Origin: Elusimicrobiota bacterium
GTDB taxonomy: Bacteria > Elusimicrobiota > Elusimicrobia > UBA1565
DNA length: 64,000 bases
Direction of reading: 5' to 3'
Assembly: GCA_043827405.1 (NCBI GenBank)
Contig: JBDRPD010000062.1
Coordinates: 1-64,000 of the forward strand
Below, in pieces: positions 1 through 32,938 of this stretch. Within the stretch, counting starts at the first letter, position 1; every line of letters begins with the position of its first letter. The translations under genes were made by a program, and so were the position numbers. Under the pieces are notes generated by a model. That model saw only the letters and a list, made by a program, of their open reading frames with translations, did no database searches and had not been told where the DNA came from.

Positions 1-3000
1 GACTTCCATATGGGGACCGGCAAGGTCTGGGCCTCGGTGAACAAGTACGACGAGATCCGGCGCTACGACAATCCGTTCAGCACCTTTGCGGAGACCGCCT
101 CGCATGAGCAGGCCCGCGGCGCGTTCTATCCGCATGGCGTCGGCTTCGACACCGGCGACAACCTGTGGGTGGCGGTGTCGACCGAGCCTGCGGCCGCGCA
201 GGGATACACCACCCGGCTGGTGCGCTTCGCCACCGCCGGCGGGGGCAACGTCACGGCTTCGACCGACGTCACGCTGACGGCCAACCTGCATGACTCCAAT
301 TTCTTCACCTTCCAGCCGAACAGCGGCCATATGTGGGTCGCCAATGATCACAACAATCCCGGCGGGGAAGCGGCTATTCTCAAGTTCACCAATACCGGCA
401 CCTACGGCGCGCCGGTCTTTAACGACGGCAATGTCACCGTGCATGCGACGCTGGCGCAGATCAATGCCCCGCGCGGCATCGCCTTCGACACCGGCGGCAA
501 CCTGTGGGTGACGTCCGCCGAAGACAAGAAGATCGTCCGCTACAATAACAATGCCGGCAATATCGAGGTAACGATATCCACCTCGTTGGTCGCCGTCTCG
601 AGCCCGCTGGCCATCGCCTTCGACAATACCGTCGGCGACATGTACGTTTCGCCCCTGCCGGAGGAGACCCCCGGTGAGGCGGCGCTCTATCTGTTCAAGA
701 ATATCGGCAGCTATGCGACGCCGTTCTTCTCCACCGCGCCGTTCCTGCTGCAGAGCGGCATCGCTATTTCTCAGATGAGGTTTAAGGGCGAGGAGCTGTG
801 GGGTTCCACTCCGTTCTCGTCGCCGTCCGAGATCGTGCGGCTGTCGACCGGCGCGCCGTCCATGGGGCCGGCCGGCTTCGGCACGATCATCGGCACCGTG
901 ACCTATGCCGGTGCCCTGAGCGGGTACTTCAAGCTGGCGGTCAGCACCGACATCCGCATGGACGACGTACAGATCATCCCCATCAGCTCCGGCTCGACCG
1001 GCTTCATTATCCCCGGCGTCCCGGCGCCGAGCACCTACTACATGCTTGGCTTCCTGGATGAGAACGGCGATGATATGCCCAGCGGTCGTGAGCCGCTGGC
1101 GTATTATAGTACCGGCCCGTCGCCATCGCCGGCGATGACGGTCTTTGTCGACCAGGATGCTACTTTCATCAATGCGGACTTTCAGATTATGGACCTGGCG
1201 GTCGCCACCGGCACCATCACCAATGCCAGTGTTCAGACTGGCAACATGCGCGTGGAGGCTTGGATCGGACCGCCCAACGCGGCTGAACAGCGATTCATGC
1301 TCGTCTCCGAGCCTTTTGGTCCATCACCGTCGGACTATACGCTGTACTTTGCGACGGGGGCGGATCTCTCTATCCGGGCTTACGTGGACGCCAACAGCAA
1401 CTACCAGCACGATGCGGGCGAAGATACCGACATCTTCGGCCCGTTCGCCATTCTGACGCCGGGCACCACGATCGGCGCCGACATCACCATCGCCGCCAGC
1501 GCCGGCGGGCAGGCCTTGGCGCAGGCCTTCAATATCGCCCCGCCCAATGTCAGCGGCAACCAGTACGACGTTCCCTTCCTGCGCCTGCTGCTGTGGACCG
1601 ACAGCGGGGTGGCGCAGCTAAATACCTTCCGCATCGGCCTCAAGGGCAGCGCGCCTTCGGGCAATGTCTATGCCAAGGTGTACCGCGATACCAACCAGGA
1701 CGGCTTCCTGCAGCCCGGACCCGACCCGCAGCTGGGCAGCTATTGGTTCAGCAGCGGCTTCCCGCCCAGCGCCGAAGTGAATATCGGGACCGAGACCATC
1801 AACACCACGACGTCGCATTTCCTGATCGCCTTCGACCTGACCAATGTGCCGGCGGGCAACAGCATCGGTGCGTCGATCGAGTTCCCCGAGGACTTCGTCT
1901 TCGGCAACGGCGCCATGGCGGTGCAGAGCGGGCTGTACCCGATCGAGTCGAGCACCGCGACGGTCAAAACCAACGTCGCCGCCAACCCCGCCAACGGCGG
2001 CTTCGGCATGCCGACGGCGAGCCCGATCGGCGGCGGCTACAATACCGGCTTGAACGTGCAGACCGGCCAGAATGTGAGCATCGCCGCTTCGGGAAACTGG
2101 GACACGGGCGTCTACGGATCCACCTGGGCGGCCGGAATCGCCGGCCAGTACAACGGCTCGGCGCCGCTGCCGGGCCAGGTGCTCGGCGCGCTGATCGGCC
2201 GCATCGGCTTTAACAACTGGTTCCTGGTGAGCACCGGCACCGCCTTCACCTCGAACTACTCGGGCGACCTGTACCTGGCGATGAACGACGACAACTACGG
2301 CGACAACTACGGCGCGGTTTCCGTCGAGTTCGGCATCCAGACCTCGACCGCGGTCAGGGTGTGGACCGGCAACTTCAATAACGACGCGAACATCCCCGCC
2401 AACTGGGCGGGCGACCAGACGCCCCTTCCGGGCGAGGCCATCCGCTTTGACGGCAACAACAGCGTCAACTGGAATATCTTCGGCGCCAATGTCGGCCTGC
2501 TGGAGATGGCCACAAGCTATACCGGGACCATTTACCTGCAAGGTACGCAGCTGCATGTTTCCGGCGACATGCGGATGGAAGGCGGCCGCTTCGACATGAC
2601 CTCGAACTCGACGCTCGAAGTCGAGAAACGGCTGTTCGTGAGCTCGAACGCGGTCTTCGACATGGGCTCCTACAATAACTCCCTGCGCTTGAGCACCCAG
2701 GGCGTCAGCGTTTCCGATAACGGCATATTCTACGCCGGCGCGAACGGCGGCAACCTGCGCATCGAGCGGTTGGGCTCACAGAACTATGAGTTCGGAGTCG
2801 GCGCCGGCACCATCACGATTACCCGGTTCGGCGGTTCGGGATGGACCTATTTTGACGGCATCAAGCAGCTTGATCTGAGCGCGCAAGCGGTGGTCAACGC
2901 TTTCGACCATGCCGCTTTCGGCAGCCCGCAGCCTAATCCGTTCCCGGTGCTCAAGCTGCAGTCCGGCACTCCTGTTTCCACGACCTTCTACAACCTCGCT

Positions 3001-6000
3001 TTCGGCGTGAATATTTCCACGAACGTCGATGCTTCGGGCGCGGCCGCCGGCTCGAATTTCCTGTTCGTCGACTCTACCGGCAGCAAGTTCGGCACGCCCT
3101 TCGAGTACGACCCCTATGGCGTGGTGTTCTGGTCGCCGGATGGCGGCGGTACGGCGATCGCTTCCGGCACCCTAGTCTACACCGGCAATCAGCCCGGGAA
3201 CTTCGAGGTTCTGGCCACCACCAGCCCCACCAATGAACCCGGCGCGCTGTATTACGACTACTCAACGGCCGTCTATACGTACCAGTTTGCATCGCTGCCG
3301 GCGCCCAATACCTGGTACTTCTTCGCCATCAAGGACAGCGACGGCGATCCGGGACCGACGGGCTTCGACGCCCGCGGCGGCTATCTCAGCTCGGGCTCGC
3401 TGCGTTCAGAACCTGTCTATCTGAACAACGGCGACAATATCGGCGGTATCAATATCCAGTTGGAGGATTGGGGCGCGATCGAAGGCACCATCACCAATAA
3501 TTCGGACCAGGTCGGACAGATTATTGTCGCGGCGTATCCGGACAGCAATCCGAATATTTTCGAGCGGTGGGAGCCGATGCCGGGCGAGGGCCTCTATACT
3601 CTGCATACCCGCGCCACCGACTACTCCTACGTTATCGCCTTTATCGATGTGAACGGCAACGAGGAGTACGACACCTTCGAGGCCAGCGGCTCGGTCGCCA
3701 ATGTTACCGTGCCGCAGCTCTCCAGCGTTACCGCGGTCCATATGACCATCGCGGGCGGCGGCGCGCAGGCCGGCGGCACCGGCTGGGTAACGGCGACGTC
3801 GGCGCATCCGGGCTATATCGCCACCAGCGGCGAAACCGGGCTGCTCAAGCTCGAGATTTGGGCGCAGGGCGGCGACCTGAACATCACCGCCTTCAAGTTC
3901 AGCATCACCGGGTCCACGCCGCCGTCCAGCTATAACCTGCGGGCCTATCATGATGTGAACTACAACGGCATATTCGATCCGATGTACGACAACCAGATGT
4001 CCTGGCTGGACCTGCCGGGCGGGGTATCTTCCGGGACTTTGGTCTTCGCCGGACCGAAGTATGTCGCCACGGACAGCACCGAAACCTTCTTCCTGGCCAT
4101 GGACCTAAACGGCCAATCGGGCATCGACAGCCTGGGCCTCGCCATGGGCGCGAGCACCTATATCGGCATCAGCCAGGGCAGCATGGCCGATCAGCCGGGG
4201 ACCTATCCTATCGTCTCCGGCAACGCCTCCGTTTCATTCGCCGTCCCGGCCTATCAATGGCTGAATATGCCGAGCCAAGGCGGCACCGGCACCGGCTTCT
4301 ACGTCGCGTCGGGACAGACGCTGAACATCACCGCCAACGGCCAGTGGAACATCAACTATTCGGAGACCACCGGCCCCGACGGCAAGCCCGGAACCCAGGG
4401 CTACGGCACCATATTGCCGGACGCCCAGTGGGGCCAGCTGCTGGCCCGCATCGGCGAGACGGCGGGGGGATCCTGGTTCAAGGTCGGGTCAAGCACGCAG
4501 ATCACGGCCCAGTCCTCCGGCGAACTCCACTTCGGCATCAACGATTTTGACGGCGACTTCTTCAACAATTCGGGCGAGCTGTATGTCGCCTACTCGGTGT
4601 CGGGTTCGACCCAGGGCGCCATCGAGGGTACGGTGACCTATGTCGGCGGCAACCCCACCGGCAATCTGCGCGTACGGGCGTACAAGTGCGACGCCGGCAA
4701 TGATGAGGATAATTCGTCGTGCGTAGCGCAGAGCACATACACCGTGGCGGTGGCGGCGGGGCAGACCCAGTATCCGTACAGCCTGAGCGGCTTGGCGCCC
4801 GGCGAGTACTACGTTGACGGCGACTGGTCGGTCGATCCGGGCCATTACGGCAATACCTATGCCCGTTTCGATGTCCCGGCGGGGTCCACCAAGACAGGCG
4901 TCAACTTCGAGCTGTCCTTGGGCGTCGGCTCGATCGCCGGCAATATTATTTACACCGGAGTGCAGAACTTCGGCAGCTTCTTCGTCGGCGCCTCGACGGT
5001 GACCGACTTCGAGAGCGATGTCGCCTTTATCGGCGAGACGACGCTGGCGGGCCCCGGAGCGTTCACCATCAGCGGCCTGCTGTCGCCCAACACCTATTAC
5101 CTGATCGCGTTCCGCGACGGCAACAACGATGATGAGCCCAACGGCCCCGAGCCCTTCGGCGTATTCGGCAACTCGGACGGCCCGATGCGGCAACTGGACA
5201 CTCTGTTTACCCCGATCTTTGTCGATACCGCCGCCGCGGTGACCGGCAAGGATATCACCGTCCTCGACCGGGCGGGGATATCGGGCAATGTCTATTTGTC
5301 GACGACGGTCTATGACAAGATCATGATCACGGTTGCGGGACATGGTCCGGTCGGCTCGCCCGGCTATGTGGCGGAAGCCGGCAATCGGCAGTACATCAAC
5401 AATGCGTCGTCGGGCAGCAGCCGCTGGTACGAAGTCGGTTTGCTGCGGCCGGCCACCGACTACTCGATATTCGCCTTCCTCGACGCCAACGACAACGGCC
5501 AGTATGACGGCGGCGAGCCCTTCGGCCAGAACAACGGGCCGTTCCCCCTGTACGCGGGCGACAACGCCTACGCCGACGTCACGGTAGCCGGCGCCCAGCC
5601 GCCGCCGCAGGTGCTCAACTTCACCGGCACGGCGCTCTCCTCGACCGCGGTGCGCTGGACGTGGAGCGCCGCCCCGGCCGCCATCAGCTACCAGCTGGTC
5701 AGCGCCGTCAGCGGCGTCCTCCAGACGGTGGCGGCGCCGGCCACCTCCTACATTGACGTCCTGACGCCTAACACCACCTCGCAGATCCGCGGCATCCGGG
5801 CCGTCAACGGTGAGGGCGCGGGACCGGAGTTCCAGATGTCCGGTCCAGCCATCGCCTCCTTCGCCTCGCAGCCGTCGATCACCGGCTTCCCGCTGATCGG
5901 GCAGAGCAGCGTGACTGTGACCTGGTCGGCCAACAGCAACTCGGCGCCGACCGTCTACGAGGTGTCGCGCGCGACCGACAGCGGCGGGCCGTTCTATACG

Positions 6001-9000
6001 ATTTCGACGCATACGGCGCTGTCGGCTCTGCACTACGGCCTGGCACCCAACCGGCAGTACTGGTACCGGGTAACGGCCCAAAACCAGGCCTTCCTCTACG
6101 GCGCGCCGTCGGCCACCTCGCCGGTGACGACCTTGGCGGCCTCCGGCGGCTCGATCTCGGGCACTATTTCCTATGCCGGCGGCCAGAAAGGCCAGATGAA
6201 GCTAACGGTACATATCGCTTCGAACCCCTGGAGCGCGGCGGTGGCCACGGCCACGCTGCCCAACGCGCCGCAGCAGGCTTACTTCATCCCGGATGTCTCG
6301 GCCGCCACCTACTTCCTGCAGGCCTGGGTCGACGTCAACGGCAACGGCATATTCAATACCGGCGAGGATAAGGGGACGTTCGGCGGCGCGGGAATTCCCG
6401 TCGCCGGCGTCGAGAACGCGGGCAACAACATCACGCTCAGCGTCGACACCGTCGCGCCCGGCCTGCCCTACGGACTGACGACGACTTTGTCCGCGGGCAA
6501 GGTCGACCTGACCTGGCAGGCGCCGACCAGCAACGCCAACGGCAGCACGCTCCTCGACCTCGCCGGCTACCGCGTGCAGCGGACGACCGCCACGGCGGCC
6601 GGCTACACCACGCTGTCGACCAATACGGTGTTCGGCGCCACCAATGTGGTCAGCGGCCTGAGCTTCCGCGACAACTCCCCGATCGCCGGCGTCGACAACT
6701 ACTACCGGGTGCGCGCGGTGGACTACGGCGGCAACCAGAGCCAGCCCTCGGGCGCGGTTTCGGCGCGGCCGTCGGCCGGCGGCACCATCTCGGGTTGGGT
6801 CAGCACCTTCACCGCGACGACCGGCGGCCTGCGGGTGCGGCTGTCCACCTCGCCGCAGCGCGGGACGTATCAGGCGCAGAGCACGATTAGTCCCTTCTCG
6901 TTCGCCGGGCTGCAGGACGGGACCTATTTCCTGCGCGGCTTCATCGACGCCGACAACAGCGGCAACCAGGACGCGGCCTCCGAGCCCTCGGGCACCTTCG
7001 GCGGCATCGCCGAGCCGTTCCCGATCAGCATCATCAACGGCAACGTCGTCTCGAGCCAGACGGTCACGATCTGCGACCGCACGGCGATCACGCCCGGGCC
7101 GCGGGTATCGGGCGGTCTGGTCAACTCCGACTGCCCGGCGCGCGACGCCGGCCCCGGCCGCTACGCCGACCTCTATACCTTCCGCGTCGGCGGCGGCGCT
7201 TCCGGCTCGATCGCCCCCGGCTCCAACATCCACATCTCGATGTTCGGATCGTTCGAGACCCAGCTGTTCCTGCTTGGTCCGGAAGGCTACGTGCTGCGCC
7301 AGAACAGCGATCCCTACGGCGCCTACCTCGATCTCAGCGTCAACCAGGAAGGCCTCTACATTATCGAGGCGGCGAGCTTCCAGCGCGACGTCATCGGCGG
7401 CGCCACTCAGTACTACGACCTCGATTTCTTCGTGTCCGGCGGCTACCAGGGCCAGGTAATCGGCAACACCGCGTACTCCGGCTCCAAGAGCGGCCAGGTC
7501 CACCTGCAGCTCTACGACAACCCGTCGGAGACCAATACCTATCCGTTCTTCGTCCACTTCGTGCCCGCGGTCGGGGCCTTCACCATCCCCAACGTGCCGG
7601 ACGGCACCTACTACCTGCGCGCCTTCATGGACGTCAACGGCAACTATGTGCGCGACGGCTCCGAGCCCAAGGGTGTCTACGGACTGAGCTCCTCCTCGCC
7701 GACCGCCATCAACATCTACGGCGGCGTCGCCGCGCAGGGCAGCCTCGACGTCACCTTGGCCGACGTCGCGGTCGGCGCCGTCCAAGGCACGGTGGTGCGC
7801 AGCGGCTCGAAGTCCGGCACCATCCGGGTCGACATCGGCCGGCCGCGCTGCAGCGACTGCGGCGACCTGGAAGTGGTGGCCTTCTCCTCGATCTCGGCCG
7901 GCGCTTTCGCCGGCGGGACCAGCACCTACTTCCTGCAGTTCATCGCTCCGGCCACGGACTATACTTTGCTGGCCTACGTCGACAGCAACGACAACCGCTA
8001 CCCCGACGCGCTCGAGGCCATCGGCTCCTCGAAGCCGGTGACCGTAATCGCCAACTCGACGGCGTCGATCAGCATCTATGTCCAGGACCCGGGCTTCGGC
8101 TCGGCCGGCAACTCGACTATCCAGGGCACCGTCAGCTACAGCGGCAGCGCCTCGACGAGCCCGGTATTTATCGGCTTCGCCACTGATCCCGAGTTCCGCA
8201 GCTTCCCGTACATCACCCAGCTGGCTTCGATCTCGGCCAACGGCACGCAGTACATCAAGAGCGGCATCGTCGGCAATACCTCCTACTATATCGGCTCCTT
8301 CATCGATATCAACAATAACGGCGAGCCGGATTTCGAAGGCGACTACATCGAGCCCAGCTACGGCAGCGAGGACTCGCCGATCTTCGTGCCGCTGTCGAGC
8401 ACCGTGGTGCGCAACTACACGCTCGAAGACCCGCCGAGCGGCCGGATTCAGGGCACCGTGACCTACGACTCGGCCACGGCCGTGACCACCTTAATCGTTG
8501 AGACCAATAGCCCCAGCTCGCAGAGCGAGGGCTCCTGGCGCAAGATCCTGATCTCCAAGACCGCCGGCACGACGACCTACGCCTACACCTTGAACAACCT
8601 GAGGGCGGCGAGCGACTTCCAGGTGCGCGCTTTCGTCGACTTCAACAATAACGGCATGGGCGACTTCGGCGAGCCCTTCTTCGAGCGCGCCACGCCGGTT
8701 ACGGTTTCCGGCAGCAGCGTTACGCCGACGACCGGCATTGACCTATTCCTGCGCGATATTCAGGAAGGCGGCGGCGGCGCCAATATCGGCTCGATCCAGG
8801 GCTGGGTGGACTATACCGGGGGCCAGTTCGGCCAGGTCCGGGTGCAGGTCTATACCACCAGCACCTATGTGGGCGCGCCGCGCTTCGACATGATCCCCAG
8901 CGGCGGCGCCTCGCCCTACTACTTCGACTTCCAGGGGGTGTCCAACGGCACCTACTACCTGCGGGCCTTCATCGATTCCAACTACGACGGCATACTTGAC

Positions 9001-17753: not shown

Positions 17754-17774
17754 GTCCTCTCCCGCCATTTATTT

Positions 17775-17859: not shown

Positions 17860-17960
17860 AAATTTCACGATTTCTTCGTGTTTTTCTGCATTAGGGGACT
17901 ATAGTATCGTGTATATTGGCCGAGCACTATAAGGGAATGTACTACCCTAAAACAAGCACC

Positions 17961-20729: not shown

Positions 20730-20738
20730 GGGGGAATA

Positions 20739-21197: not shown

Positions 21198-21206
21198 GCC
21201 GCTGAA

Positions 21207-24200: not shown

Positions 24201-27200
24201 ACCTTGGTCCTCGCCGGCGACCTCCTCAACAACGGGGGGACGGTGCAGTACAGCATGTCGAGCACCGGCACCGTGCGCTTTGCCGGCGGCGCCGATCAGA
24301 CCGTGCTGCTTAGAGACGCCGACGAGTTCTCCCGTTTCGAGACCGCGTCCTCGAGCCGGGTGATCCTGGCCGGGGGGCGGTTGAACGTCGCGGGCGACTT
24401 CGTCCTCTCCTCCGGCACGCTGCGCGCGGGGAGCGCGCTGCTGAACCTGCGGGGCGACTGGAGCGGCACCGGCGGCGGCTTCCTGGCCGAGGCCAGCACC
24501 GTGGTGTTTTCTTCGGCCGGCGCCGGCGCCGCGGCGCGCTTTACCGACGGCTACGGGGTGACGTTTAACGGGCTGTCGCTGCAGGTTCCCACCATGGTGT
24601 TCAACTCCTCGTTTACCGCCGCCGTGCTGACCAGCACCCGCACGGGCGGTCTGAATATCTTCACCCCGACCGGAGCGGATCGCTATACCGTGAGCGACCT
24701 GCGCATCAACGGCGGTTCCGTGAGCGACCGCATCCGAATTCGCAGTTCGGTTCCCGGCACGCTGTTCGGCATCAGCATCGTCAGCGTTTCCAGCGTGACC
24801 GCCGCCGATATCCAGGATTCCAACGCCGTCGGCACCGTTATCCACGCCAACGACGGCGACAGCGTGGATTCCGGAAACAATATCAACTGGAACATCAAGC
24901 CGAACCTGGTACTGATCGCGCCGGGAGAATCCTTCGCGGAGACCATCGGCAAGACCGGCACGCCGAGCGTGCAGACTGCCGGCGCGCCGTTCACCGTTAC
25001 CGTACGGGCCGTCTCCTCGAACTTCCGCACCCGAACGGATTTCGCCGGGACCGTCAGCGTGACGAGCGACGACCCTTACGATACCGAGCCGGCGCCCGCG
25101 GCGCTGACCGGGGGTGTCGGGACCTTTATCGTGTCGCTGCGCATCGCCGAGCCGGCGCCCTATCCTTCGCCGCTGCAGGCGGCCAGCGCGGGGGTTTTCG
25201 CCGGAACGTCCGCCGTGATCGGCGTGAATCCGGCGTACTTTGACCGGCTGCAGCTGACTTTCGAGGGCGAGACGCTGGTCCCGGGTTCGCCCGACGGCAT
25301 ATCAGGCGTGCCGAACGCCAAGGTCATCGGGCTGCCGTTCGGCGTCACGGTACGGGCCACCGATCCCTTCTGGAACCTGCGTACGGGCGAGACCGACACC
25401 GTCGAGCTGTCGACGGCGGCGGTCTCCTCGGTTACGCTGCCGTCGCCGGTAGCGATGACGGGCGGGCGGGGCCTATTCGCCGGCATCTACTCGCATACGA
25501 CGACGTCGATGCTGCTGCGGGCGCGCGACCTCACCAACGGAAATGTCAAGCTCAGCACCGGCCAGCCGGTCGTGATCTTCGGCCTTTCCGTCTCCAGCCC
25601 CATCGCGATGCTGGGCATCGCTCAGGACTCGATCGTGCCGACCTTGGGCGGCGCGCTGGTGGGGACGGCCTCCGACAGCGTCGCGGTGACCGAGGTTCGG
25701 CTCTCGATCAAGGACTCCGCGGCGGGGAAGTTCTTCGACTGGACGGCGCTTGCTTTCAGCTCGGGAGCGCCCGAGTACAAGCGGGCGGCGATCAGCCCGC
25801 AGAACAGCCCGCAGGCGCAGTGGTCGCTGAGCTTCCCGGATGAGCGGCTGACCAGCGGCAAGGAGTACTACGTGCTGCTGCAGTCGTCGAACCCCTCGCA
25901 GTATGTTTCCAGCGTCTATTCGACGTTTACTTTCGATACCGGCGGGCTGGTGTTCGACCCGACCGACGGCCAGGGGACGGCCGCTGTGCTTCCGGCCGCG
26001 ACCGTCGGCTGCCGGCAGGTTATCTCGACGGTAACCTTTACCGTGGGCGCCGACGGGATCGGCAAGGAAGGCGCCGTGGCTTTGCGCGTCCCCGAAGGAT
26101 GGACGCGGCCGACGGCGCTGGCCGGCCTTACGCCGCAGCCCGGCCAAGTGCGGATTATCGGCGGCTCGGCGGCTTATCCCGCTTCCACCGAGGTGACGTT
26201 CAACCCGCCGCGATACGGCGGCACCGAACTGGGAGATCAGTGGGTCCTGGTGAGCGTCAAAGCGAGCGCGGCCAACGAGTTCGCCGGCGGCGATACGCTG
26301 CAGTTCGTCTATTCCGGCTTCCCGCCCAACGGCCCGGCCGGCCAGGGCGTGCAGTTTTTCGACCTGCGCACCCAGGGCGCCGCGTCCGGGAACCTGGTCA
26401 GCATCTCGACGGTGCCCAGCCTGACGCTCAGCCCAGGGACGGCAAGCGCGCTCCGCTTCGACGACCAGCGGCCGCTCATTCTCGGGCCGCTGCAGGCGTC
26501 GGCCACCATGCGGCTGCTGGTCACCGATGCCTGCGGCAATCCGGCCGCGGCCGCCGGCGCCGCGCCCGTGGTGCTGTCGGCCGGGGTGCCGGAAACGGCG
26601 GGCTTTGCCGTCGACGCGAACGCGGAGTTTTTCCTGGGCGGTACCCCGACCAACTCCGTTCAGATCGGCGCCGGCGAGAGCGCGTCGCAGCCTTTCTATT
26701 TCCGGACTTCGACTACCGGCGTCGGCTTCGAGCTGCTGCGCGCCACCGCGGTTCTGGCGGGCGGCGCCGCCGCCGTCGACCGGCCGGTGCGGCTGCGGGC
26801 TTCAGCGGTCGCGCTGACCGGCGTCTCCATCGATTCGGGGACCCTGATCGCGGGGGCGACCAGCGTCCTCGTCGTGCCCGGCCGCAGCGGCTCGCGCGCC
26901 GTCGTGCGTTTCCGGCTTCCCGACGCGGCCCTGCGCTGGGAGGTCGTGGTCGCGACCGATTCCACTTTTGATCCGCCGGTTTTCACCGCCGCGGGGTTCG
27001 GCCGCCCGGACGCCCCGGTGCTGGTCGCGTTTGACGGCATGCGCTGCCGGCGCGGCAGCTGCGGCTTCCTTCCTCCCGGGACGTATCCGGTACGCATCCG
27101 GTCTCCCGGAAGCACCGCCGAGGATACCACGCTCGAGGTGCGGGTGGACGCCGCGCCGATGATCTACGGCGTGGTGCGCCTGCAGAGCGGCGCTGCCGGG

Positions 27201-30200
27201 GCGGGCGCGGTAGTCCGGGCGGACGGTCCGGGCAGCGGCGTCGGCAGCTTCGCGGTGGCAAGCTCCACCGGCTACTTCCAGATCTTCGGGCTGCGGGACG
27301 GCGGGGTATATACGGTGACCGCGGACACCGCGGTCTTCGTCTCCGGCCAGCACGTGACTCTCAGCACGCGGGTATTCGGCGTCAGCGCTTCGTCGGATGT
27401 CGGCACCAGCACTTTCCCCGCCGCCTCCTTCATCCGGGTGAACGTGGGCATCCCGATGGCCTCTCCTATCGAGTTCTTCGGCCGCGTATCGGCGCATGAC
27501 GCGAGCTATGCGGCCGAGGCCTTCGGCACGCTCCACTTTTCCTCCGGCCGCTCGCGCTCCGATGACGGCGGCACCGCGATGAGCCTCGCCGCGAGCACCT
27601 GGACCACGCTGCATCTGCCGCCGGGGATCTATGACCTCGACGTCGATCTGGGGCGCATCGGCGTCACCACGCAGGTGGCCGGCGTCTCCCTGGCCGCCGG
27701 CGGCATGACCGATGTGACGCTGCAGCTCGAGCGGCCGGCGAACGTCTACGGCTTCATCGTGCTGCCTTCTACCAAGCCGTTCGGCGCCCCGGTCTCGGTG
27801 CGGGCGCTGCGGCAGGGCGCGACGTACCCGGCGGCGTTCGCCGGGACCTTCGTCGAGGCCTCCACGAGCAGCGTCGCGATCACCAGCGCGCCGTATCGCC
27901 TGTACGGCCTGTCCGCCGGGACGTGGATGCTGACCGCGCAGGGCGAGGGCTATGTTTCGGTGTCCTCGACGCTCTATGTCGCCGCGGGGACGGATATCGG
28001 CGATCCGGTATGGGGCGTCGGCAACCTGAATTTCACTTTGGGCCTTGGAGGCGTGATCTACGGGACCGTCACCGTGACGGGCGACACGACGGCTCTTTTC
28101 GACCCGCCCGACGCGAACGCGCCCGCCGGAAGGTCCGGCTTCAGCGTCTACCTGACCGCCTATGATCCCGCGACCTACGAGATGCGGACGCAGCGCGTGC
28201 GACTGTCGACCAATACGACGGTTACGTCGGCGACCTATACGCTGACCGGCCTGACGCCGGGGACGCATGCCCTCAGCGCCTTCCTCGCGGGTTTTGAAAA
28301 GTCGCCGCCGGGAGCGGAAAGCGTCGCGGTCTCCAGTATTACGCAGGTTAACATGAGCTTCGTGCCGGTCTCCGGCGGACTGCGTTTGAATATCGACCTG
28401 CCGCCGGCCGGCGGCGCCTGCCGTCCGGCCGCCGACTACGGCGAGGTCGGGCTGTTCGTCGAGGGGCCGGATATCGGCCCCGAGGTCTACGCCGATATCA
28501 CCGTTTTCGACAATTTTCGCGCCGGCGTCGTGGAGGAGCTGTTCTGTTCCAGCATGTCGCTGACGGTTCCGGGGCTGGGGACCGGCGTGCACAATTTCCG
28601 CCTCATGCACGGGCCCTCCGGAAACGCGCAGGACCTGTTCCTGCCGCTGATCAGCGGGGCGACGGCCGCCGTTCGCGTCGATCTCGCCGCCGCGACCTAT
28701 ACGGTCTCGGGAACCGCCGCGATCTCCGGAGTGGTGCGGTTTTCGGGTTCCGATTTCGCGATTTCCGTCAGCTCGGCGGCGGGGCTGGTGGCGCAGTCGA
28801 CGCGCGCCGCCTACTGTTTATTGTCCTCAAGCGAGCCGGTGACGCTGTCCGCCGCCCGCGTTGAGCTCGTCGCGCTGGACCGGCGCGGCGGGACCGTTCC
28901 CGGTCCGCTGCGGATATCGACCGCCGCCGACTGCCTGCGCTATTCGCTCGCTCCGTCATCGGCGGCGCCGCCCGCGCTGGTCGCCTACGCCGCGGAGCTC
29001 ACGGCGGACGGCAGCTACACCATCGCCGGGGTTCCCGCGGGCGCCTACCTGCTGCGGACGCCGGGCGACCTGGACGGGGATTCAAGCAACGGCGATGAGG
29101 CCGCTCCCGTACGCAAGGTGCTCAACGTGACGGGCGACCTTACGGCGGATGTCGAGATCGGCAATGGAGCGAGCGTTCGCGGAACGGTATCGCTGCCGCC
29201 GGGCTATTCCCTCAGCCGCCCGGTCGCGGTGAGTCTGCTGGACGGCCGCGGGAAGACGGTGCGGCGCCAAGTGCTGCATTTCGCGAAAAAGGACGCCGTT
29301 TCTTATGTGTTCGAGCAGGTGGCGGACGGCGCGTATGCGGTGACCGCGGAGGATATCGCGCAAACCAAAGGGTTCGCGGCCAAGCCCCTGCTGCTGACGG
29401 TCGCGGGCGCTGATCTCGATGACCAGGACCTTGAGCTGCGGCTCGCGGGCCGCATCCGCGGCCGTCTTGCCGTAGAAAGATCGCGTCCGGAAGGGACGCG
29501 CGACTTCGCCGTCATCACGCCGGACAACCGTGATCTGCTCCCCGGCGGTTTGAAGATCGCGGCCGCGGCGGATCCGTGGTTCCAGGGCGGCTTGTATGAA
29601 GCGAATGGCGACCAATGCAATGATTTGGGATGCGGGCGCGCGGCTTTGGACGCCGAGGGCGCGTTTGTAATCGAAGGCGTTCTTCCGGGCAGCTATAACC
29701 TGGAATTTTATGCGGTCAGCGGCGCGGCGGACGCGCAGGCCGGCCGGCCGGCTTTGGTCCCCACGCGCCGGGCGGGCATCGGCGTGGAGGCGGCGCGCAC
29801 CACAGATGTGGGCGTCGTGCGGCTGCGCATGGGCGCCACGCTCGGCGGACAGGTTACGGATGCGGTTAGCGGAGAAGGCTTGGCGAATATCCGCATCATG
29901 GCGCGGCCGATGGGCGGGGCGCCGGGCGCGGAGAGCAGCCGCATACTGCCTCCGGAGACGCAGGCGGGCCGCGACGGACGCTACGAGCTCCGCGGCCTTG
30001 ATCCCGAGGTGCGCTACTACGAGATAATCGCCGCCGAACGGGAAGACGGCGCGTCGACCGGCGAGACGCCGGCCTACGAGCGGACGGTCTATCCGACGAT
30101 TGATATCCGCAGCACCGCGACGCTTAATATCGCGCTGCGCCGCGCCGCTTTCACGGCAACCGGCCGCGTCGTCTCTTCCGGCGGCGGGAGCCTGTCCTAT

Positions 30201-31976
30201 TCCGAAAATGGAGAGTCCCGGCCCGGAGCGCGTCTCTACCTGCAGAAGGAAGGAGTTATCGCCACGCGCAGTCCTTTCGGCGACATCCTCACCCATGCGG
30301 CGCCGGACGGGAGCTACTCGGTGCCGGGTCTTGCCCCGGGCTCCTACCGCCTGCGGGCGGCGGCCCTTAACCATGCGCCGGCCGTGACCGCGTTTACCAT
30401 TACGGTATCCTCGGTGGATATCGGAACGATGACCCTTGATCCGGGCGCGACCCTGTCCGGGTCCATCCGCTTCCCCGACGGTACGGCGCCGGGCGAGGAC
30501 GATATCGCGGCGGTGCTGGGCGCCACGCCCGACCAAGGCGAGGTGCTGTCGGGGACACTGACGAAGGATCCGGTCACGCGGACGGTGACGGGCTACCGTC
30601 TCAGCGGCTTCCGGCGCGATACGGTGTACCGTCTGGTGTTCATCACTCCGCGCCAGGAAGTCGTTTCGCCGGCTGAAGGGTACTATGTCGTTTTCGCCAG
30701 CAGCGTGGAGACGCGCGGCCTCGACCTGGTGTTTCGCCGCCGGAAGCCGTACGTGCTGGCCAAGTCGCGGCGTACCGGCGCGGATTTCCTGCTCGAGTTT
30801 CAGACCAGCCATCCCCTGCGCGCGCGCACCTCCGACGACAGCGACCTTTCCCGCATCCTGTCGACGACGAGCGCTCTGGGGACCTTGAAGAACCGCGAGC
30901 TTTCGACGGATCGCCAGCGCCTGCGCGCCGAGTATACGCCTGCGGTCGGCGAATCGAGCTTCACCGTGCGGCTTAAGGCCTACAGCGCCCTCAAGGATCC
31001 GGATTCCTCCGATACGGTCAATGCGGAGTTCATGGTGAACTCGACCTTCTCCTTCTATGCCGGGCTCGACGGCTACCAGCGGACCAGCATCCCCAACCTC
31101 GCGGGCGGCGCGCTCGCGCTCGAGGGGGACAGCGGGCGGGTGGCGCTGCCGGAAGGGGCGTTTTTTGTGGATCCGTCGTCCGCGGTGCTGGTTACGTTCC
31201 AGCGCTCCAGCGAGCTGCTGACCGATGCCGAGCGCTATGCGGCGAGCGGGCTGAGCCCGGCGGCGGCCAATCTCCGCTCCCTGCGCTATCCCGTGCAAGC
31301 CTATCCGCCCGGGGTCCTGTCGGCGCTGGCCGCGACGCCGCCGCAGCTTGATCCGCTTTCCGCATTCTACGACGTCCTCCTGCCGCTGGGGGTGCGTACC
31401 GCGCTCGCCGCGCCGGTGAAGATTACGCTGCGCTATGCGGCGGGCGTCGATCCGGCCGAGCTCAACGTCTACTGGTATAATCCGGCGGCCAACGCCTACG
31501 TGCTGCAGCAGGACGCGACCGGGGCGGCGCCGGAGATCGACACGGCGAACCGGACGATAACGATTCACGTCAGCCATTTTTCGACCTTCGTGCTGTTCCA
31601 GACCGGCGTTTCGGTCATTACCGGCAACAGCTTCGGCGGCGGGGAGATCGAGGCCTATAATTTCCCGAACCCCTTCGACCTGAAGTTCAAGACGGTGACG
31701 CCGGTCCACGGCGTGGCGGCGCAGTCCGTTCGCGGCACCATGATCCGCATCGGGCTGCCCGCGGACGCGAGCGGCGGCGCCAGCCTGCATATCTTCAATA
31801 TCGCCGGCCAGCGGGTGCGGACGATCGATCTTGGCACTTTGCGCGGCGGGCAGACCTATTATCAGCCTTGGGATGGACGCGGCGACGGCGGGCGCGACGT
31901 CGCCAGCGGCGTCTATTTCGCGCAGGTTAAAGTCGGGGACAGGTTCAAGTTCTTCAAGATGGCGGTCATCGAATGA
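21207..31976 (+). CDS. Giant secreted surface protein (3589 aa): Gly-rich domain, beta-solenoid-like repeats, Ig-like and carboxypeptidase-regulatory-like stalk, HFS motif, T9SS-CTD/FlgD-Ig-like C-terminus
   Basis: Signal peptide (ARA-AG); poly-Gly runs; GxWxxxGGxF...TVxF repeats; C-terminal YNFPNPF...IFNIAGQRVR...WDGR...VASGVYF...KMAVIE. Confidence 0.9.
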   Translation: MSLRLAALLSVLAAALPCGEARAAGIDWTGAGDNRSWSDGLNWYPSGVPATGSDVTIASSTLIVIGAGENIDLNSITLGDGISSPTLKTQTGFKNVGVFTAASSATLIFDTNLVSTMGVVTINSGALISQLGPVESATVAVRMMVQTFELQAGATITLSGRGYAGGGSIANGKGPGGGLKGSASAGGGGGGHGSLGGDGSNAGGLTGIGGITNDSQKVPEYMGSGGGGGLAPCFGGPGGGLLRLFAATATINGLIDVDGGAAPNSCSGGGGGGAGGGVYIETQFLHGRGTFTARGGNGGAAASTGGGGGAGGRVAFSISSATLADFSVDVAAGLGGPAPGSGNPGANGATYADPKIYVGNAGGNCSTAGNWFSGLTPQINENILFGSSNTLTGCIWNVGVFGGSLGNFTITPEFQGIITWSAAFSDIGGDFTIAGGTLASTNSEIKLAGNWNHTGGVFLLDNGTVTFNGSGAQTIAQQPGSYFRNLRISGAATGANSVQQTSDLVIRGNTTLGARFENSSGGYKIRLWGDMLDKPPDAVGDTEWIMEGAAPQSVSTGPYFALTINNTSSVTFSGSDPPGVGPGDLTIGPDAILDISGRDLELGGDFMDLGGTFTVAGATLSFANSTQTVTFNAPGIVLEHVDIRKLDGTVLWLTSATIGGNLTLRSTSTLSVANGSTITALGHWTHIEQATLAAGTGTVVFAGSSPQVVYTTAAAAFHQLHSSNTTTVTLSTDVVVLSDLEMHAGTLDFSGTALRVRGDLLSSGGSNPAVTGSTLTLDGGTLQNLVLGPFSPALDSLVIANSSSGVVLVSSITVQRNFTIQSGTTFYAQDRTLTLTGDGGLWDSAYANYYSAGGGQHVVRWNPSGGAATLYVTNGSTVDAHIDAYNTVSLQGYLFIKGAGNSFNGQPGLTFVATNSLVHLADDCDFVFPADGAYVHDANSWIIFAGSGTDRGLNLSTGPFANIRLSPDYSTSTFAFNNITLDGSLVLDRGLLRNNGDRTLVLAGDLLNNGGTVQYSMSSTGTVRFAGGADQTVLLRDADEFSRFETASSSRVILAGGRLNVAGDFVLSSGTLRAGSALLNLRGDWSGTGGGFLAEASTVVFSSAGAGAAARFTDGYGVTFNGLSLQVPTMVFNSSFTAAVLTSTRTGGLNIFTPTGADRYTVSDLRINGGSVSDRIRIRSSVPGTLFGISIVSVSSVTAADIQDSNAVGTVIHANDGDSVDSGNNINWNIKPNLVLIAPGESFAETIGKTGTPSVQTAGAPFTVTVRAVSSNFRTRTDFAGTVSVTSDDPYDTEPAPAALTGGVGTFIVSLRIAEPAPYPSPLQAASAGVFAGTSAVIGVNPAYFDRLQLTFEGETLVPGSPDGISGVPNAKVIGLPFGVTVRATDPFWNLRTGETDTVELSTAAVSSVTLPSPVAMTGGRGLFAGIYSHTTTSMLLRARDLTNGNVKLSTGQPVVIFGLSVSSPIAMLGIAQDSIVPTLGGALVGTASDSVAVTEVRLSIKDSAAGKFFDWTALAFSSGAPEYKRAAISPQNSPQAQWSLSFPDERLTSGKEYYVLLQSSNPSQYVSSVYSTFTFDTGGLVFDPTDGQGTAAVLPAATVGCRQVISTVTFTVGADGIGKEGAVALRVPEGWTRPTALAGLTPQPGQVRIIGGSAAYPASTEVTFNPPRYGGTELGDQWVLVSVKASAANEFAGGDTLQFVYSGFPPNGPAGQGVQFFDLRTQGAASGNLVSISTVPSLTLSPGTASALRFDDQRPLILGPLQASATMRLLVTDACGNPAAAAGAAPVVLSAGVPETAGFAVDANAEFFLGGTPTNSVQIGAGESASQPFYFRTSTTGVGFELLRATAVLAGGAAAVDRPVRLRASAVALTGVSIDSGTLIAGATSVLVVPGRSGSRAVVRFRLPDAALRWEVVVATDSTFDPPVFTAAGFGRPDAPVLVAFDGMRCRRGSCGFLPPGTYPVRIRSPGSTAEDTTLEVRVDAAPMIYGVVRLQSGAAGAGAVVRADGPGSGVGSFAVASSTGYFQIFGLRDGGVYTVTADTAVFVSGQHVTLSTRVFGVSASSDVGTSTFPAASFIRVNVGIPMASPIEFFGRVSAHDASYAAEAFGTLHFSSGRSRSDDGGTAMSLAASTWTTLHLPPGIYDLDVDLGRIGVTTQVAGVSLAAGGMTDVTLQLERPANVYGFIVLPSTKPFGAPVSVRALRQGATYPAAFAGTFVEASTSSVAITSAPYRLYGLSAGTWMLTAQGEGYVSVSSTLYVAAGTDIGDPVWGVGNLNFTLGLGGVIYGTVTVTGDTTALFDPPDANAPAGRSGFSVYLTAYDPATYEMRTQRVRLSTNTTVTSATYTLTGLTPGTHALSAFLAGFEKSPPGAESVAVSSITQVNMSFVPVSGGLRLNIDLPPAGGACRPAADYGEVGLFVEGPDIGPEVYADITVFDNFRAGVVEELFCSSMSLTVPGLGTGVHNFRLMHGPSGNAQDLFLPLISGATAAVRVDLAAATYTVSGTAAISGVVRFSGSDFAISVSSAAGLVAQSTRAAYCLLSSSEPVTLSAARVELVALDRRGGTVPGPLRISTAADCLRYSLAPSSAAPPALVAYAAELTADGSYTIAGVPAGAYLLRTPGDLDGDSSNGDEAAPVRKVLNVTGDLTADVEIGNGASVRGTVSLPPGYSLSRPVAVSLLDGRGKTVRRQVLHFAKKDAVSYVFEQVADGAYAVTAEDIAQTKGFAAKPLLLTVAGADLDDQDLELRLAGRIRGRLAVERSRPEGTRDFAVITPDNRDLLPGGLKIAAAADPWFQGGLYEANGDQCNDLGCGRAALDAEGAFVIEGVLPGSYNLEFYAVSGAADAQAGRPALVPTRRAGIGVEAARTTDVGVVRLRMGATLGGQVTDAVSGEGLANIRIMARPMGGAPGAESSRILPPETQAGRDGRYELRGLDPEVRYYEIIAAEREDGASTGETPAYERTVYPTIDIRSTATLNIALRRAAFTATGRVVSSGGGSLSYSENGESRPGARLYLQKEGVIATRSPFGDILTHAAPDGSYSVPGLAPGSYRLRAAALNHAPAVTAFTITVSSVDIGTMTLDPGATLSGSIRFPDGTAPGEDDIAAVLGATPDQGEVLSGTLTKDPVTRTVTGYRLSGFRRDTVYRLVFITPRQEVVSPAEGYYVVFASSVETRGLDLVFRRRKPYVLAKSRRTGADFLLEFQTSHPLRARTSDDSDLSRILSTTSALGTLKNRELSTDRQRLRAEYTPAVGESSFTVRLKAYSALKDPDSSDTVNAEFMVNSTFSFYAGLDGYQRTSIPNLAGGALALEGDSGRVALPEGAFFVDPSSAVLVTFQRSSELLTDAERYAASGLSPAAANLRSLRYPVQAYPPGVLSALAATPPQLDPLSAFYDVLLPLGVRTALAAPVKITLRYAAGVDPAELNVYWYNPAANAYVLQQDATGAAPEIDTANRTITIHVSHFSTFVLFQTGVSVITGNSFGGGEIEAYNFPNPFDLKFKTVTPVHGVAAQSVRGTMIRIGLPADASGGASLHIFNIAGQRVRTIDLGTLRGGQTYYQPWDGRGDGGRDVASGVYFAQVKVGDRFKFFKMAVIE

Positions 31977-32938
31977 AGCGGGCGCTGACGCTGATCGCGG
32001 CGGCCGCCGCGGCCCTGGGGCCGTTGGCGCCGCGGCATGCCAGCGCCTATGGAAAGGCCGACCGCGGTACGTCCGGCGCCGCTTTCCTGAAGCTGCCGCC
32101 GGGCGCCCGCCCCTCCGCCCTGGGCGAGGCCTATTCGGCCGTGGCCGATGACGTCTACGCGGTCTATTATAATCCCGCCGGACTGGCCCGGCTCGGCCGG
32201 TCTGAGCTCGCCGGGATGCATAATAAGCACTTCCAGGATACCAGCCATAATTTCGGCGCTGTCGCCGTGCCTTTGCTGTCCTGGGTCGATACCCGCCGTC
32301 CGCGTTACGAGTTCGGCGTCCTGGCGCTCTCCCTGACGAGCCTGTCGGTTGATGGTATCGAGCGGCGCGGCCTGGTCGAAAGCGACGAGCCGGAGGGGAC
32401 TTTCGGGGCGCGGGATTTTGTCTATACGCTGGGCTACGGCTATGCGGTAGGCGACCGTTTGTCGATCGGCGCGGCGGGCAAGTATATCTCCCAAACGCTT
32501 GATTCGTCCCGCGCCTCGGCCTTCGCCGTGGACGGCGGCACGCAGTACCGCGCCGGGCGTCTGCGCGCCGCCGCCGGCTGGCGCAACGGGGGCAGCGCCG
32601 TCAAGTTCCATTCCAGAGGCAATCCGCTGCCGTTTGAGGTCTACTTCGCCGGCGGCTATGCCTGGTCGGAGCGCTGGCTGGGCGTTGTGGAAGCGACTTT
32701 GCCGCGCGATGATTCGCCGGGTTTTGCCGCCGGCGTCGAATACCGGCGCGCGATAATGGAAGATCTTGACGGCGGCCTGCGGCTGGGCTACAACTCGGAG
32801 CATACCGCGGCCGACGGCCTGGGCGGAGTCACGGTGGGGCTGGGCTTAAGCTACGGGAAGACGGCTTTTGATTTCGCCTGGGTGCCCTACGGGGAACTGG
32901 GGAGTACCTTCCGCTATTCGGTCCGCGTCCGGTTTTAG
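31973..32938 (+). CDS. PorV/PorQ-like (UPF0164) outer-membrane beta-barrel, copy 2
   Basis: Paralog of 16800..17753 (GTSGAAFLKL...GEAYSAVADDVYAVYYNPAGL; FDFAWVPYGELGSTFRYS...F); ATGA overlap with giant 2. Confidence 0.85.
   Translation: MKRALTLIAAAAAALGPLAPRHASAYGKADRGTSGAAFLKLPPGARPSALGEAYSAVADDVYAVYYNPAGLARLGRSELAGMHNKHFQDTSHNFGAVAVPLLSWVDTRRPRYEFGVLALSLTSLSVDGIERRGLVESDEPEGTFGARDFVYTLGYGYAVGDRLSIGAAGKYISQTLDSSRASAFAVDGGTQYRAGRLRAAAGWRNGGSAVKFHSRGNPLPFEVYFAGGYAWSERWLGVVEATLPRDDSPGFAAGVEYRRAIMEDLDGGLRLGYNSEHTAADGLGGVTVGLGLSYGKTAFDFAWVPYGELGSTFRYSVRVRF

Follow-up and report, generated by a model that had tools for sequence, protein, structure and literature searches.

Seven open reading frames (ORFs), all co-directional, fill positions 1-32938 of the window, the 64,000 nt stretch of Elusimicrobiota DNA analysed here, which comes from a genome of 98% completeness (Table 1). 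Two of these encode giant proteins, referred to here as cargos, and the gene for each giant joins that of an outer membrane barrel through an ATGA stop/start overlap; between the two cassettes lie genes for a FecR-domain protein, a further barrel and a cyclic nucleotide-binding protein. This arrangement, together with a C-terminal domain (CTD) common to both giants, had been proposed by an earlier sequence-only reading, and is confirmed by the ORF coordinates, by CTD matches above the Pfam FlgD_ig cut-off and, for the FecR-domain and cNMP-binding genes, by Pfam. The same reading had placed the host probably outside the Bacteroidota; the best named relatives of LigA, like the closest Atlas clusters of barrel 1, are indeed from Elusimicrobiota, and the host is not an FCB or Bacteroidota organism with a canonical type 9 secretion system (T9SS).

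Table 1. Features of the cassette block, with positions in the window
Feature	Position	Strand	Description
Giant cargo 1	1..16803	+	5600 aa visible, open at contig start
Cargo 1 ZU5/GAIN-fold (MAIN-like) domain, predicted	15793..16413, limits approximate	+	model, pLDDT 84.5
Cargo 1 HFS motif (His5462-Phe-Ser)	16384-16392	+	turn preceding last strand, in model
Cargo 1 CTD, T9SS-type, PorU/PorZ-like	16444..16800	+	conserved Lys5591, clade-specific GSGL tail
Barrel 1, PorV/PorQ-family outer-membrane	16800..17753	+	317 aa; NF033709 158 bits
FecR-domain protein	17916..19484	+	522 aa; Pfam FecR E 3e-18
Unnamed outer-membrane beta-barrel, not PorV family	19485..20729	+	414 aa
Stand-alone cyclic-nucleotide-binding protein	20739..21197	+	152 aa; Pfam cNMP_binding E 1.7e-21
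Giant cargo 2	21207..31976	+	3589 aa, signal-peptide-like N-terminus
Cargo 2 HFS motif (His3457-Phe-Ser)	31575..31583	+	133 residues before C-terminus
Cargo 2 CTD	31647..31973, start approximate	+	FlgD_ig 38 bits; TIGR04183 21.6 bits
Barrel 2, PorV/PorQ-family outer-membrane	31973..32938	+	321 aa; NF033709 132 bits

The block is syntenic in eight of a chosen set of nine relatives; the FecR gene and the middle barrel are syntenic among those compared, and the cNMP-binding gene is found in the stretches of seven. The FecR-domain protein begins with a signal-peptide-like segment, and its C-terminal domain is conserved and unnamed. Neither this domain nor the middle barrel has a significant match in the PDB; the nearest named look-alikes of the latter are Slam-like and BBP2 barrels, which constitute a lead only.

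The size of at least 5597 aa originally given for giant 1 holds, with the correction that the gene is truncated at its 5' end by the end of the contig: orthologues in two relatives (G013 and G007) are approximately 7,520 and 7,840 aa long, and both start with signal-peptide-like N-termini. Domain searches found no catalytic family in either cargo, cargo 1 having weak matches to beta-propeller, PA-IL-like lectin, Fn3, DUF2141 and carboxypeptidase-regulatory-like Ig domains and cargo 2 having carboxypeptidase-regulatory-like Ig domains; the giants are putative adhesins by domain content only.

The two CTDs, which are 51% identical, have FlgD_ig as their best Pfam match, and full-length FlgD (NF005176, cut-off 230) is not matched, the score of approximately 27 bits covering one Ig domain only. 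The cut-off of 23 bits for TIGR04183, the type A CTD model, is passed by CTD1 (24.8 bits) and by 13 of 22 CTDs in all, with CTD2 falling below it, and the type A lysine is retained. Among the same 22 domains, the best NCBIfam match is the PorZ C-terminus in 13 cases and PorU in four; likewise, the best PDB matches are PorZ and PorU both by profile and by fold, the model of CTD1 aligning with the CTDs of PorU (Z 11.2) and PorZ (Z 9.7). The type B model, TIGR04131, gave no row for any of the 22 at E values up to 0.05, and the Pfam CHU_C cut-off was reached by one, which was neither of those in the window. The original description of the domain as type A/FlgD-like is refined, on the NCBIfam, profile and fold comparisons, towards the PorZ/PorU type. 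Since their closest resemblance is to PorZ and PorU, the CTDs of which stay uncleaved, and not to type A CTDs of the ordinary kind, the best precedents are the PorZ-PorQ and PorU-PorV pairs of the Porphyromonas gingivalis T9SS (PDB 5M11, 6ZA2), which also share the PorV/PorQ barrel family. PorZ and PorU retain their CTDs, with PorQ holding PorZ (PMC10947112); the two are housekeeping proteins of the attachment complex, whereas here 23 unrelated cargos have coupled barrels.

The barrels had been described as PorV/UPF0164-like, and their membership of the PorV family is borne out: both pass the NF033709 PorV/PorQ family cut-off of 90, and the profile of barrel 1 matches the PorV structure 6H3I_F with an E value of 7.5e-35. 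They are 44% identical to one another, and score below the stricter equivalog cut-offs set for PorV and for PorQ. Pfam PorP_SprF is passed by a single barrel of the genome (on contig C23), and by neither of those in the window. The cassettes resemble type B systems, such as SprB-SprF and PG1035-PorP (PMC9143113, PMC12618676), in having a barrel gene directly after that of the cargo and in the expected uncleaved CTD anchor, but differ in barrel family, in the type of CTD and in that no motor was found.

Across the genome, a CTD occurs at the very C-terminal end of 27 ORFs, and 23 of 27 PorV-like barrels are encoded by the next gene after one of these, against 0.04 expected by random placement; the cassettes in the window are two of these 23. 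A barrel gene follows next or next but one in 24 of the 27 cases, and four barrels and three cargos are unpaired; 18 of 24 CTD-barrel pairs have an ATG or GTG start that overlaps the stop by 4 bases. A 423-aa barrel in the vicinity of sprA proved to belong to Pfam TraF_2 and is left out of the PorV-like set, which thus numbers 27 and not 28.

This pairing is conserved in related genomes, as had been anticipated. A CTD gene lies directly upstream in 18 of 19 barrel-1 orthologue loci and in 23 of the 40 top PorV-family loci of other Elusimicrobiota (a broader profile raises this to 24, leaving 16 without a detected upstream CTD gene); PorV-family barrels occur in 147 of 151 genomes of the phylum. 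Furthermore, CTD and barrel distances correlate both among 19 pairs of this genome (Mantel rho 0.56, p 1e-4) and among 23 phylum pairs (rho 0.45, p 1e-4), the same cassette being nearest for barrel and CTD in just 8 of the latter. The cassettes appear, from these sequence comparisons, to evolve as units. A pattern-based locus scan returned matches from other phyla only, and at the three PorV-like barrel loci checked in other phyla the preceding gene was porU in every case.

The expected interface between CTD and barrel was recovered for the first cassette, for which a model of the CTD1 and barrel 1 complex scored 0.94, compared with 0.00 for the best of three controls; the mark applied is attained by 116 of 157 solved pairs and 2 of 215 mismatched pairs. 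Model runs share at least 98% of contacts, with a partner pLDDT of 90, and the conserved CTD lysine is predicted to contact a barrel loop that aligns beside PorV Phe115, as on the equivalent loop in PorV-CTD structures. The score may be owed to likeness to those solved structures. It does not show exclusivity, because near relatives of genuine partners clear the mark as well. The findings on host, barrel family, modelled interface and conservation of pairing, and the T9SS link provided by the SprA homologue described below, all leave the sequence-only reading standing, and none of the outcomes it named as refuting was observed. A candidate charge pair was rejected, failing outside the two clades represented in the window (p 0.63).

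Ahead of CTD1, a model of cargo 1 residues 5261-5600 contains a domain similar to ankyrin ZU5 (Z 11.1, rmsd 2.7, 127 aligned) and to GAIN folds (Z 8.0-9.2), such as those of CD97 (9.2) and BAI3 (8.9). Its profile matches the GAIN region of ADGRB2 with an E value of 3.7e-4, and Pfam ZU5 is found in two of 50 aligned members; in the model, the HFS motif falls within a strand-turn-strand. Of 25 cargos, two CTD-only proteins being too short for testing, 15 carry the pattern H-[FL]-[ST] at a distance of 102-139 residues from the end and 10 lack it; at other places in the cargos it occurs in 12 of 548 windows. One further match, on C92, falls within the CTD region and is excluded, which reduced the count from 16. 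Among 24 orthologues of the giants, HxS is retained by 23, and the motif histidine and serine occur in at least 90% of 50 aligned rows, some of which were picked for the motif. The HFS-bearing domain of cargo 2 would, by homology, be of the same kind. In a recent preprint, MAIN domains are described as being cleaved at HFS and sited just before a surface anchor, with cleavage products that remain associated (bioRxiv 10.64898/2026.05.12.724683). The cargos share with MAIN and ZU5 proteins (same preprint; PMC3482391) the fold, the HFS turn and the order of signal peptide, ectodomain, domain and anchor; the preprint names sortase tags, wall-binding domains and SLH domains as anchors, whereas here the anchor slot is taken by a T9SS-type CTD. 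By this analogy, the domain is predicted to self-cleave.

The earlier statement that no SprA, PorK-N or PorU gene lies in the window stands as regards SprA, although the genome scan found a single divergent SprA homologue, a 1,909-aa ORF on contig C17 that is unlinked to the cassettes. As a profile, its only PDB match is SprA (E 3e-36), whereas as a single sequence it has none; a model of its last 1,200 residues (pTM 0.53) matches SprA with Foldseek E values of 9e-34 to 3e-30, the next fold being at 2e-5. It scores 145 of the 200 bits set as the TIGR04189 cut-off, and is about 1,900 aa in length as opposed to 2,403 for known SprA. SprA matches are found in 141 of 151 genomes of the phylum, nearly always one per genome. 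The combination with PorV-family barrels is reminiscent of the SprA/Sov translocon with PorV and type A CTDs (PDB 6H3I, 6H3J, 8GL6, 8GL8; PMC10994853), from which the present system differs in having many barrels rather than one shared PorV, in yielding no PorU or GldLMN match and in its non-FCB host.

Peptidase_C25, the domain of the PorU sortase, was detected in all three comparison genomes, in two of 151 genomes of the phylum and in none of 41 relatives including this genome. The PorZ model, which gave full-length matches in two of three comparison genomes, matched CTD regions only in this genome (G000) and in one relative (G034). The absence of PorU and full-length PorZ from these searches is a further difference from the P. 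gingivalis attachment complex, and as there is no sortase, no CTD cleavage is expected. Searches for motor components, for which 38 genomes of other phyla gave no positive control, found GldM in none of 5 and none of 41 genomes, GldL in none of 5 and GldN in none of 43.

We consider it fairly probable (approximately 0.62) that the window contains two of 23 cassettes belonging to a pared-down type 9-like system, comprising SprA export, a barrel-held CTD and self-cleaving release. By extension from Bacteroidota biology, the giants would pass the inner membrane by Sec export and likely cross the outer membrane through the single divergent SprA pore, at the lateral opening of which the CTD is predicted to be captured by the loops of the co-encoded barrel; the uncleaved CTD would then probably stay on the barrel as a surface anchor, like PorZ on PorQ. 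SprA export and barrel retention are likely given that a divergent SprA is present and that sortase and motor went undetected. The GAIN/ZU5-fold domain is predicted, from the MAIN preprint, to cleave at the F-S bond, and the large ectodomain would be non-covalently held and released under load. In Flavobacterium, the carrier-substrate complex needs a motor to exit SprA (PMC10994853); since no GldLM motor was detected here, the force for leaving the pore would come either from the binding of CTD to barrel or from a motor that escaped recognition. A bolder version, which we advance tentatively and with less than even confidence, is that this is a motor-free, sortase-free, phylum-wide form of type 9 secretion, in which one SprA serves cargos of up to 7,800 residues, a private PorV/PorQ-type barrel per cargo, on binding, pulls the tag from the pore and anchors the protein permanently, and an adhesion-GPCR-like self-cleaving link is released by force; it may resemble an ancestral core that preceded the motor, ring and sortase of Bacteroidota.

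It is possible, though rather less likely than our favoured explanation, that export follows the same route with barrels that are interchangeable, pairing and translational coupling serving only to match each cargo molecule with a barrel, and the agreement of the trees arising from cassette duplication; this departs from the best explanation in partner specificity only. Consistent with it, barrel-CTD residue covariation is not enriched at the predicted interface, being below random column sets (effective depth approximately 19), core interface residues are common to both clades in the window, unpaired cargos and barrels occur, and in Flavobacterium a single PorV is shared by every type A CTD (PMC12618676). 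Arguing for specific partners, pairs are maintained across three families, the GSGL tail within the predicted interface is found in 19 of 19 cargo-1 rows (one as GSRL) and none of 49 others, barrel position 147 is Tyr or Phe in 19 of 19 barrel-1 rows compared with two of nine barrel-2 rows, and type B shuttles are cognate-specific (PMC12618676). The original description of the barrels as 'dedicated' is sustained as a conserved one-cargo/one-barrel pairing, with exclusive binding unsupported by the negative covariation result.

An energised T9SS-like machine, with a motor that has diverged beyond the reach of the Bacteroidota models or is borrowed (TonB/ExbBD-like), barrels recycling as shuttles and HFS cleavage replacing PorU such that cargo is shed into the medium, appears unlikely. 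Motor subunits could be missed, because the SprA homologue is itself far below its cut-off and the GldL, GldM and GldN searches had no positive control; release requires energy in Flavobacterium (PMC10994853), and matches to the GldK model, which likewise had no positive-control genome, exist below the cut-off. Such GldK-model matches are, however, also found in Bacillus, Caulobacter and Methanosarcina, and no candidate motor gene is conserved beside sprA in 21 loci; moreover, the CTD would still fill the barrel after HFS cleavage, the products of which remain associated in MAIN domains, and one coupled barrel per cargo is better suited to stoichiometric use than to recycling.

That every cassette couples its cargo tightly to a barrel, with sprA unlinked in this genome, could also suggest self-contained two-partner exporters, each small barrel carrying its cargo across the membrane and the SprA homologue having some other task. 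This is very improbable: PorV-family carriers are known to bind CTDs by extracellular loops at SprA (PMC10994853), the four genomes of the phylum without a PorV-family match also lack a SprA match, and in several relatives the sprA stretch retrieved also contains PorV-family barrels. Least credible of all is that the FlgD-like domain represents an Ig module of generic type, with giants that stay in the periplasm or take a different way out and barrels that act as uptake pores, for while FlgD_ig is the best Pfam match, CTD2 falls below the TIGR04183 cut-off and the barrel profile has weak FadL/TodX matches, the domain was found right at the C-terminal end of 27 ORFs, is nearer to PorZ and PorU than to FlgD with the type A lysine kept, and models onto barrel 1, and the genome's cargos bear extracellular-type lectin, Fn3, Kelch and subtilase domains.

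The T9SS has been assigned to the Bacteroidota or FCB group only (PMC12618676; PMC11205867). A literature search, which covered few subscription papers, found no description of SprA, PorV or T9SS in Elusimicrobiota; the available portions of 10.1101/2023.11.21.568195, PMC12204202 and PMC8542988 contain no statement on these, and the main text of the MAIN preprint does not mention T9SS, PorV or Elusimicrobia. Judged from genomes and models, the occurrence of SprA and PorV-family proteins in 141 and 147 of 151 Elusimicrobiota genomes, respectively, would carry the outer membrane core of the T9SS well beyond the FCB group. Cryo-EM led to the conclusion that a motor is needed for extracting carrier and cargo from SprA (PMC10994853), and a naturally occurring system in which no motor can be recognised would directly test the purpose of this energy. 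Similarly, 23 natural CTD-barrel pairs in one genome would provide a ready set for deciphering a carrier-specificity code, and the arrangement of a MAIN-like domain with a CTD would extend force-released surface display to outer-membrane bacteria.

Re-reading of the window gave the same seven open reading frames (ORFs), with the same lengths and both ATGA overlaps, as the sequence-only reading, which had taken the barrels behind the two giant genes to be PorV-like. Both pass the NF033709 model of the PorV/PorQ family and neither passes the narrow PorV or narrow PorQ model; a profile of 68 barrel sequences matches Flavobacterium PorV at E 7.5e-35, against 3.9e-7 for FadL-type pores. The window starts at the start of contig C62, and giant 1 is truncated there, because its first residues align ~1,500 to 1,900 residues into longer orthologues with signal-peptide-like N-termini (about 7,520 residues in relative G013, 7,840 in G007). 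Neither giant contains a catalytic Pfam family; their lectin-like, Fn3, DUF2141 and Ig-like modules suggest, from domain content, an adhesion or scaffolding role for both. The expectation of a non-Bacteroidota host held: Elusimicrobiota are the source of the named best relatives of LigA in the window, of the Atlas clusters nearest to barrel 1 and of those middle-barrel relatives that carry a name. The host genome (G000) is 4.33 Mb in size and 98% complete.

Features of the window and of other contigs of the host genome
Feature	Location	Strand	Remark
Giant 1	window 1-16803	+	
Barrel 1	window 16800-17753	+	
Giant 2	window 21207-31976	+	
Barrel 2	window 31973-32938	+	
ORF ending block	window 32935-33465	-	convergent; signal-peptide-like start; no Pfam family
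ORF ending block	window 33561-34934	-	convergent; signal-peptide-like start; no Pfam family
Class A beta-lactamase-like domain protein	window 45232-46347	-	47 of 200 bits, far under family cut-off
Cyanophycin synthetase	window 52474-55143	+	above cut-off
sprA homologue (locus L073)	C17:8074-13803		
TraF_2-family barrel	C17:17470-18741		423 aa; 3.6 kb from sprA
Tiny cargo	C23:19613-21972 (locus)		
Tiny cargo	C42:18646-20645 (locus)		
Longest cargo	C68:2-28294 (locus)		7,851 aa visible

An iterated profile search of the host genome returned 27 ORFs with a terminal T9SS-type C-terminal domain (CTD) and 28 barrel matches, one of which, sharing an N-terminal motif with the PorV family, was excluded as Pfam TraF_2 to leave 27 PorV-like barrels. 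Of these, 23 directly follow a CTD gene, against 0.04 expected by random placement, and 24 of the 27 CTD genes are followed by a barrel gene in first or second place; three cargos and four barrels are unpaired. Four-base overlaps with an ATG or GTG start join 18 of the 24 pairs. Domains found in other cargos (17 scanned) are subtilase, Kelch, laminin-G, beta-helix and Big_3, and C-terminal TPRs occur in 7 of 20 barrels scanned. Two tiny cargos (127 and 144 aa frames) are barely more than a signal peptide and a CTD, and could be caps or housekeeping parts; in the one on C23 a TPNGD motif recalls type B, and the barrel of this cargo is the sole Pfam PorP_SprF match of the genome, relatives G007 and G034 having one match each. 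No PorV-like barrel gene stands behind the longest cargo; the genes after it are one of 669 aa, one that is FecR-like and one for another type of barrel-like protein (labels by eye).

Every one of the 41 genomes in the order sample has matches to barrel 1 (6 to 35 each). The locus was fetched from nine relatives, a non-random sample, eight having been picked for two barrel matches on one contig; eight keep both cassettes of cargo gene and barrel gene in unchanged order on either side of the FecR gene and the middle barrel, six have the complete set of seven genes, and the ninth has the cNMP gene together with giant 1 and barrel 1. The pairing proposed for the window was borne out at these loci, barrel-1 orthologues always lying behind giant-1 orthologues and barrel-2 behind giant-2. 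Across the phylum, 147 of 151 genomes have PorV-family matches, above cut-off in 100. A CTD gene ends <400 bases upstream at 23 of the best-scoring 40 loci; a broader profile adds one, and 16 show none. Distances among CTDs are correlated with distances among barrels, with rho 0.56 over the host genome's 19 pairs and 0.45 over 23 pairs from the phylum (p 1e-4); in 8 of the latter the nearest cassette is identical for CTD and barrel, with about one expected by chance. These figures show duplication and descent of the cassettes as units, and do not prove exclusive binding. In other phyla, CTD genes precede 29 of 49 barrels (47 loci); 12 of the 29 are one family, and all three checked are PorU in the ordinary porU-porV order. 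At 13 loci (L003-L016, L034, L043), several from Krumholzibacteriota, a 1,050-1,110-aa CTD protein accompanies a PorV-like barrel; the two checked are metalloproteases of M6-like type, with scores below the family cut-off.

The assignment of the CTDs to type A was refined: 13 of 22 scanned pass the type A model, and the best NCBIfam match is the C-terminal end of PorZ in 13 and that of PorU in 4, in a ranking where long-model and short-model scores are not strictly comparable. None of the 22 matches the type B model. The best PDB matches of the CTD profile are PorZ (E 2.6e-13) and PorU (7e-9), with FlgD and ordinary type A CTDs behind, and the modelled CTD of giant 1 (CTD1) is likewise closest in fold to PorU (Z 11.2; rmsd 2.9, 96 aligned) and PorZ (Z 9.7). 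The passages on these proteins in PMC10947112 describe PorU and PorZ as substrates with uncleaved CTDs, PorZ being held at the surface by PorQ. Type B cargo, according to sections of PMC12618676 and PMC9143113, uses an adjacent cognate PorP/SprF barrel and remains bound. The system here unites parts of the PorZ/PorU-PorQ/PorV kind with the type B order of cargo gene, then barrel gene.

Release may be built in upstream of the CTD. Of 25 cargos, 15, both giants among them, have the motif H-[FL]-[ST] at a distance of 102 to 139 residues from the C-terminus; in other parts of these proteins it occurs in 12 of 548 windows. Among orthologues of the giants, 23 of 24 conserve HxS, and 14 of 23 cargos from across the phylum show the strict motif. 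When the 340 C-terminal residues of giant 1 are modelled (pLDDT 84.5), the domain before CTD1 matches ankyrin ZU5 (Z 11.1) and GAIN domains (Z 8.0-9.2), and the His-Phe-Ser (HFS) motif occupies the turn preceding its last strand. Microbial GAIN (MAIN) domains are described in a preprint as being cut between F and S with products that remain associated, and as located just before a surface anchor (Brogan and Rudner, 10.64898/2026.05.12.724683); its main text makes no mention of T9SS, PorV or Elusimicrobia. A section of PMC3482391 had earlier noted ZU5 domains in large bacterial surface proteins. That the CTD occupies the anchor position behind such a domain is independent support for its retention.

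The proposed genome-wide scan for sprA, porU and porKLMN yielded a divergent sprA on C17, but neither the PorU family nor motor genes were found. The 1,909-residue ORF matches the SprA model under cut-off, as do proteins in 39 of 41 relatives. A profile from 21 such proteins matches SprA alone in the PDB, and a structure model of the last 1,200 residues (pLDDT 79.8, pTM 0.53) has SprA as its best fold match (E 9e-34 to 3e-30), with 2e-5 for the runner-up. The homologue is present, nearly always singly, in 141 of 151 phylum genomes, and the four genomes without a PorV-family match are all among the ten without it. Peptidase C25, the PorU family, was found in none of 41 relatives and 2 of 151 phylum genomes, with strong positive-control matches in Caldithrix, KSB1 and Krumholzibacteria genomes. 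With the PorZ model, matches here are confined to CTDs, and two of those three genomes yield full-length proteins. Models of GldL, GldM and GldN had no match in the genomes searched and GldK had generic ones; as these searches had no positive-control genome, the motor is 'not found' rather than 'absent'. No conserved motor-like neighbour flanks sprA in 21 loci (L155-L174 compared with that of the host), where we take the usual neighbours to be a small phosphoribosyltransferase/ComF-like gene (19/21) and LptF/G-like permease genes (17/21). The Caldithrix, KSB1 and Krumholzibacteria genomes (G041, G042, G043 via L033, L024, L011) have SprA above cut-off and C25 peptidases, with no GldM/GldN match; SprA systems that have a sortase and lack a motor may be common in phyla other than Bacteroidota.

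The predicted complex of CTD1 with barrel 1 scores 0.94, against 0.00 for the best of three controls. Of solved pairs 116 of 157 attain the mark, and of mismatched pairs 2 of 215; at least 98% of contacts recur between runs, and the partner pLDDT is 90. This pass may reflect likeness to solved complexes, since PorV-CTD complexes are among them. A near-invariant CTD lysine contacts barrel residues aligning beside PorV Phe115, and the loop aligned with PorV Asn87 belongs to the modelled interface (our reading of alignment and model, with PorV residues as in PMC10994853). For the proposal of one barrel per cargo, co-encoding and shared descent hold, but the evidence on partner specificity is mixed: a GSGL tail limited to the cargo-1 clade (19/19 rows, 0/49 others) sits in the predicted interface, against which mutual information between barrel and CTD shows no enrichment there. 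A candidate charge pair as specificity determinant failed outside the window clades.

The FecR-domain gene and unnamed middle barrel occur together in relatives' loci. A second such pair, downstream of dnaG/rpoD-like genes, immediately precedes giant 1 in G013 and G007 (L082, L085, L089), as does its barrel in G020. Named look-alikes of the middle barrel are, at lead level only, Slam-like and BBP2 barrels. With the cNMP protein, these may form a separate surface or signalling module, and the mechanism below is drawn up without them.

In the most likely mechanism (probability about 0.62), cargo would be exported by Sec and then pass through the SprA homologue, its CTD would be captured by the co-translated barrel, the two would leave the pore as a 1:1 complex and stay as anchor, and self-cleavage at HFS would make the ectodomain sheddable under load. 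We infer every transport step, with gene order, homologies and modelled folds as the demonstrated part. The system would work like the canonical T9SS, but stands outside it on PorU, PorZ and host group. Passages of PMC12618676 and PMC11205867 confine the T9SS to Bacteroidota or FCB, and the literature searched gave no description of such a system in Elusimicrobiota.
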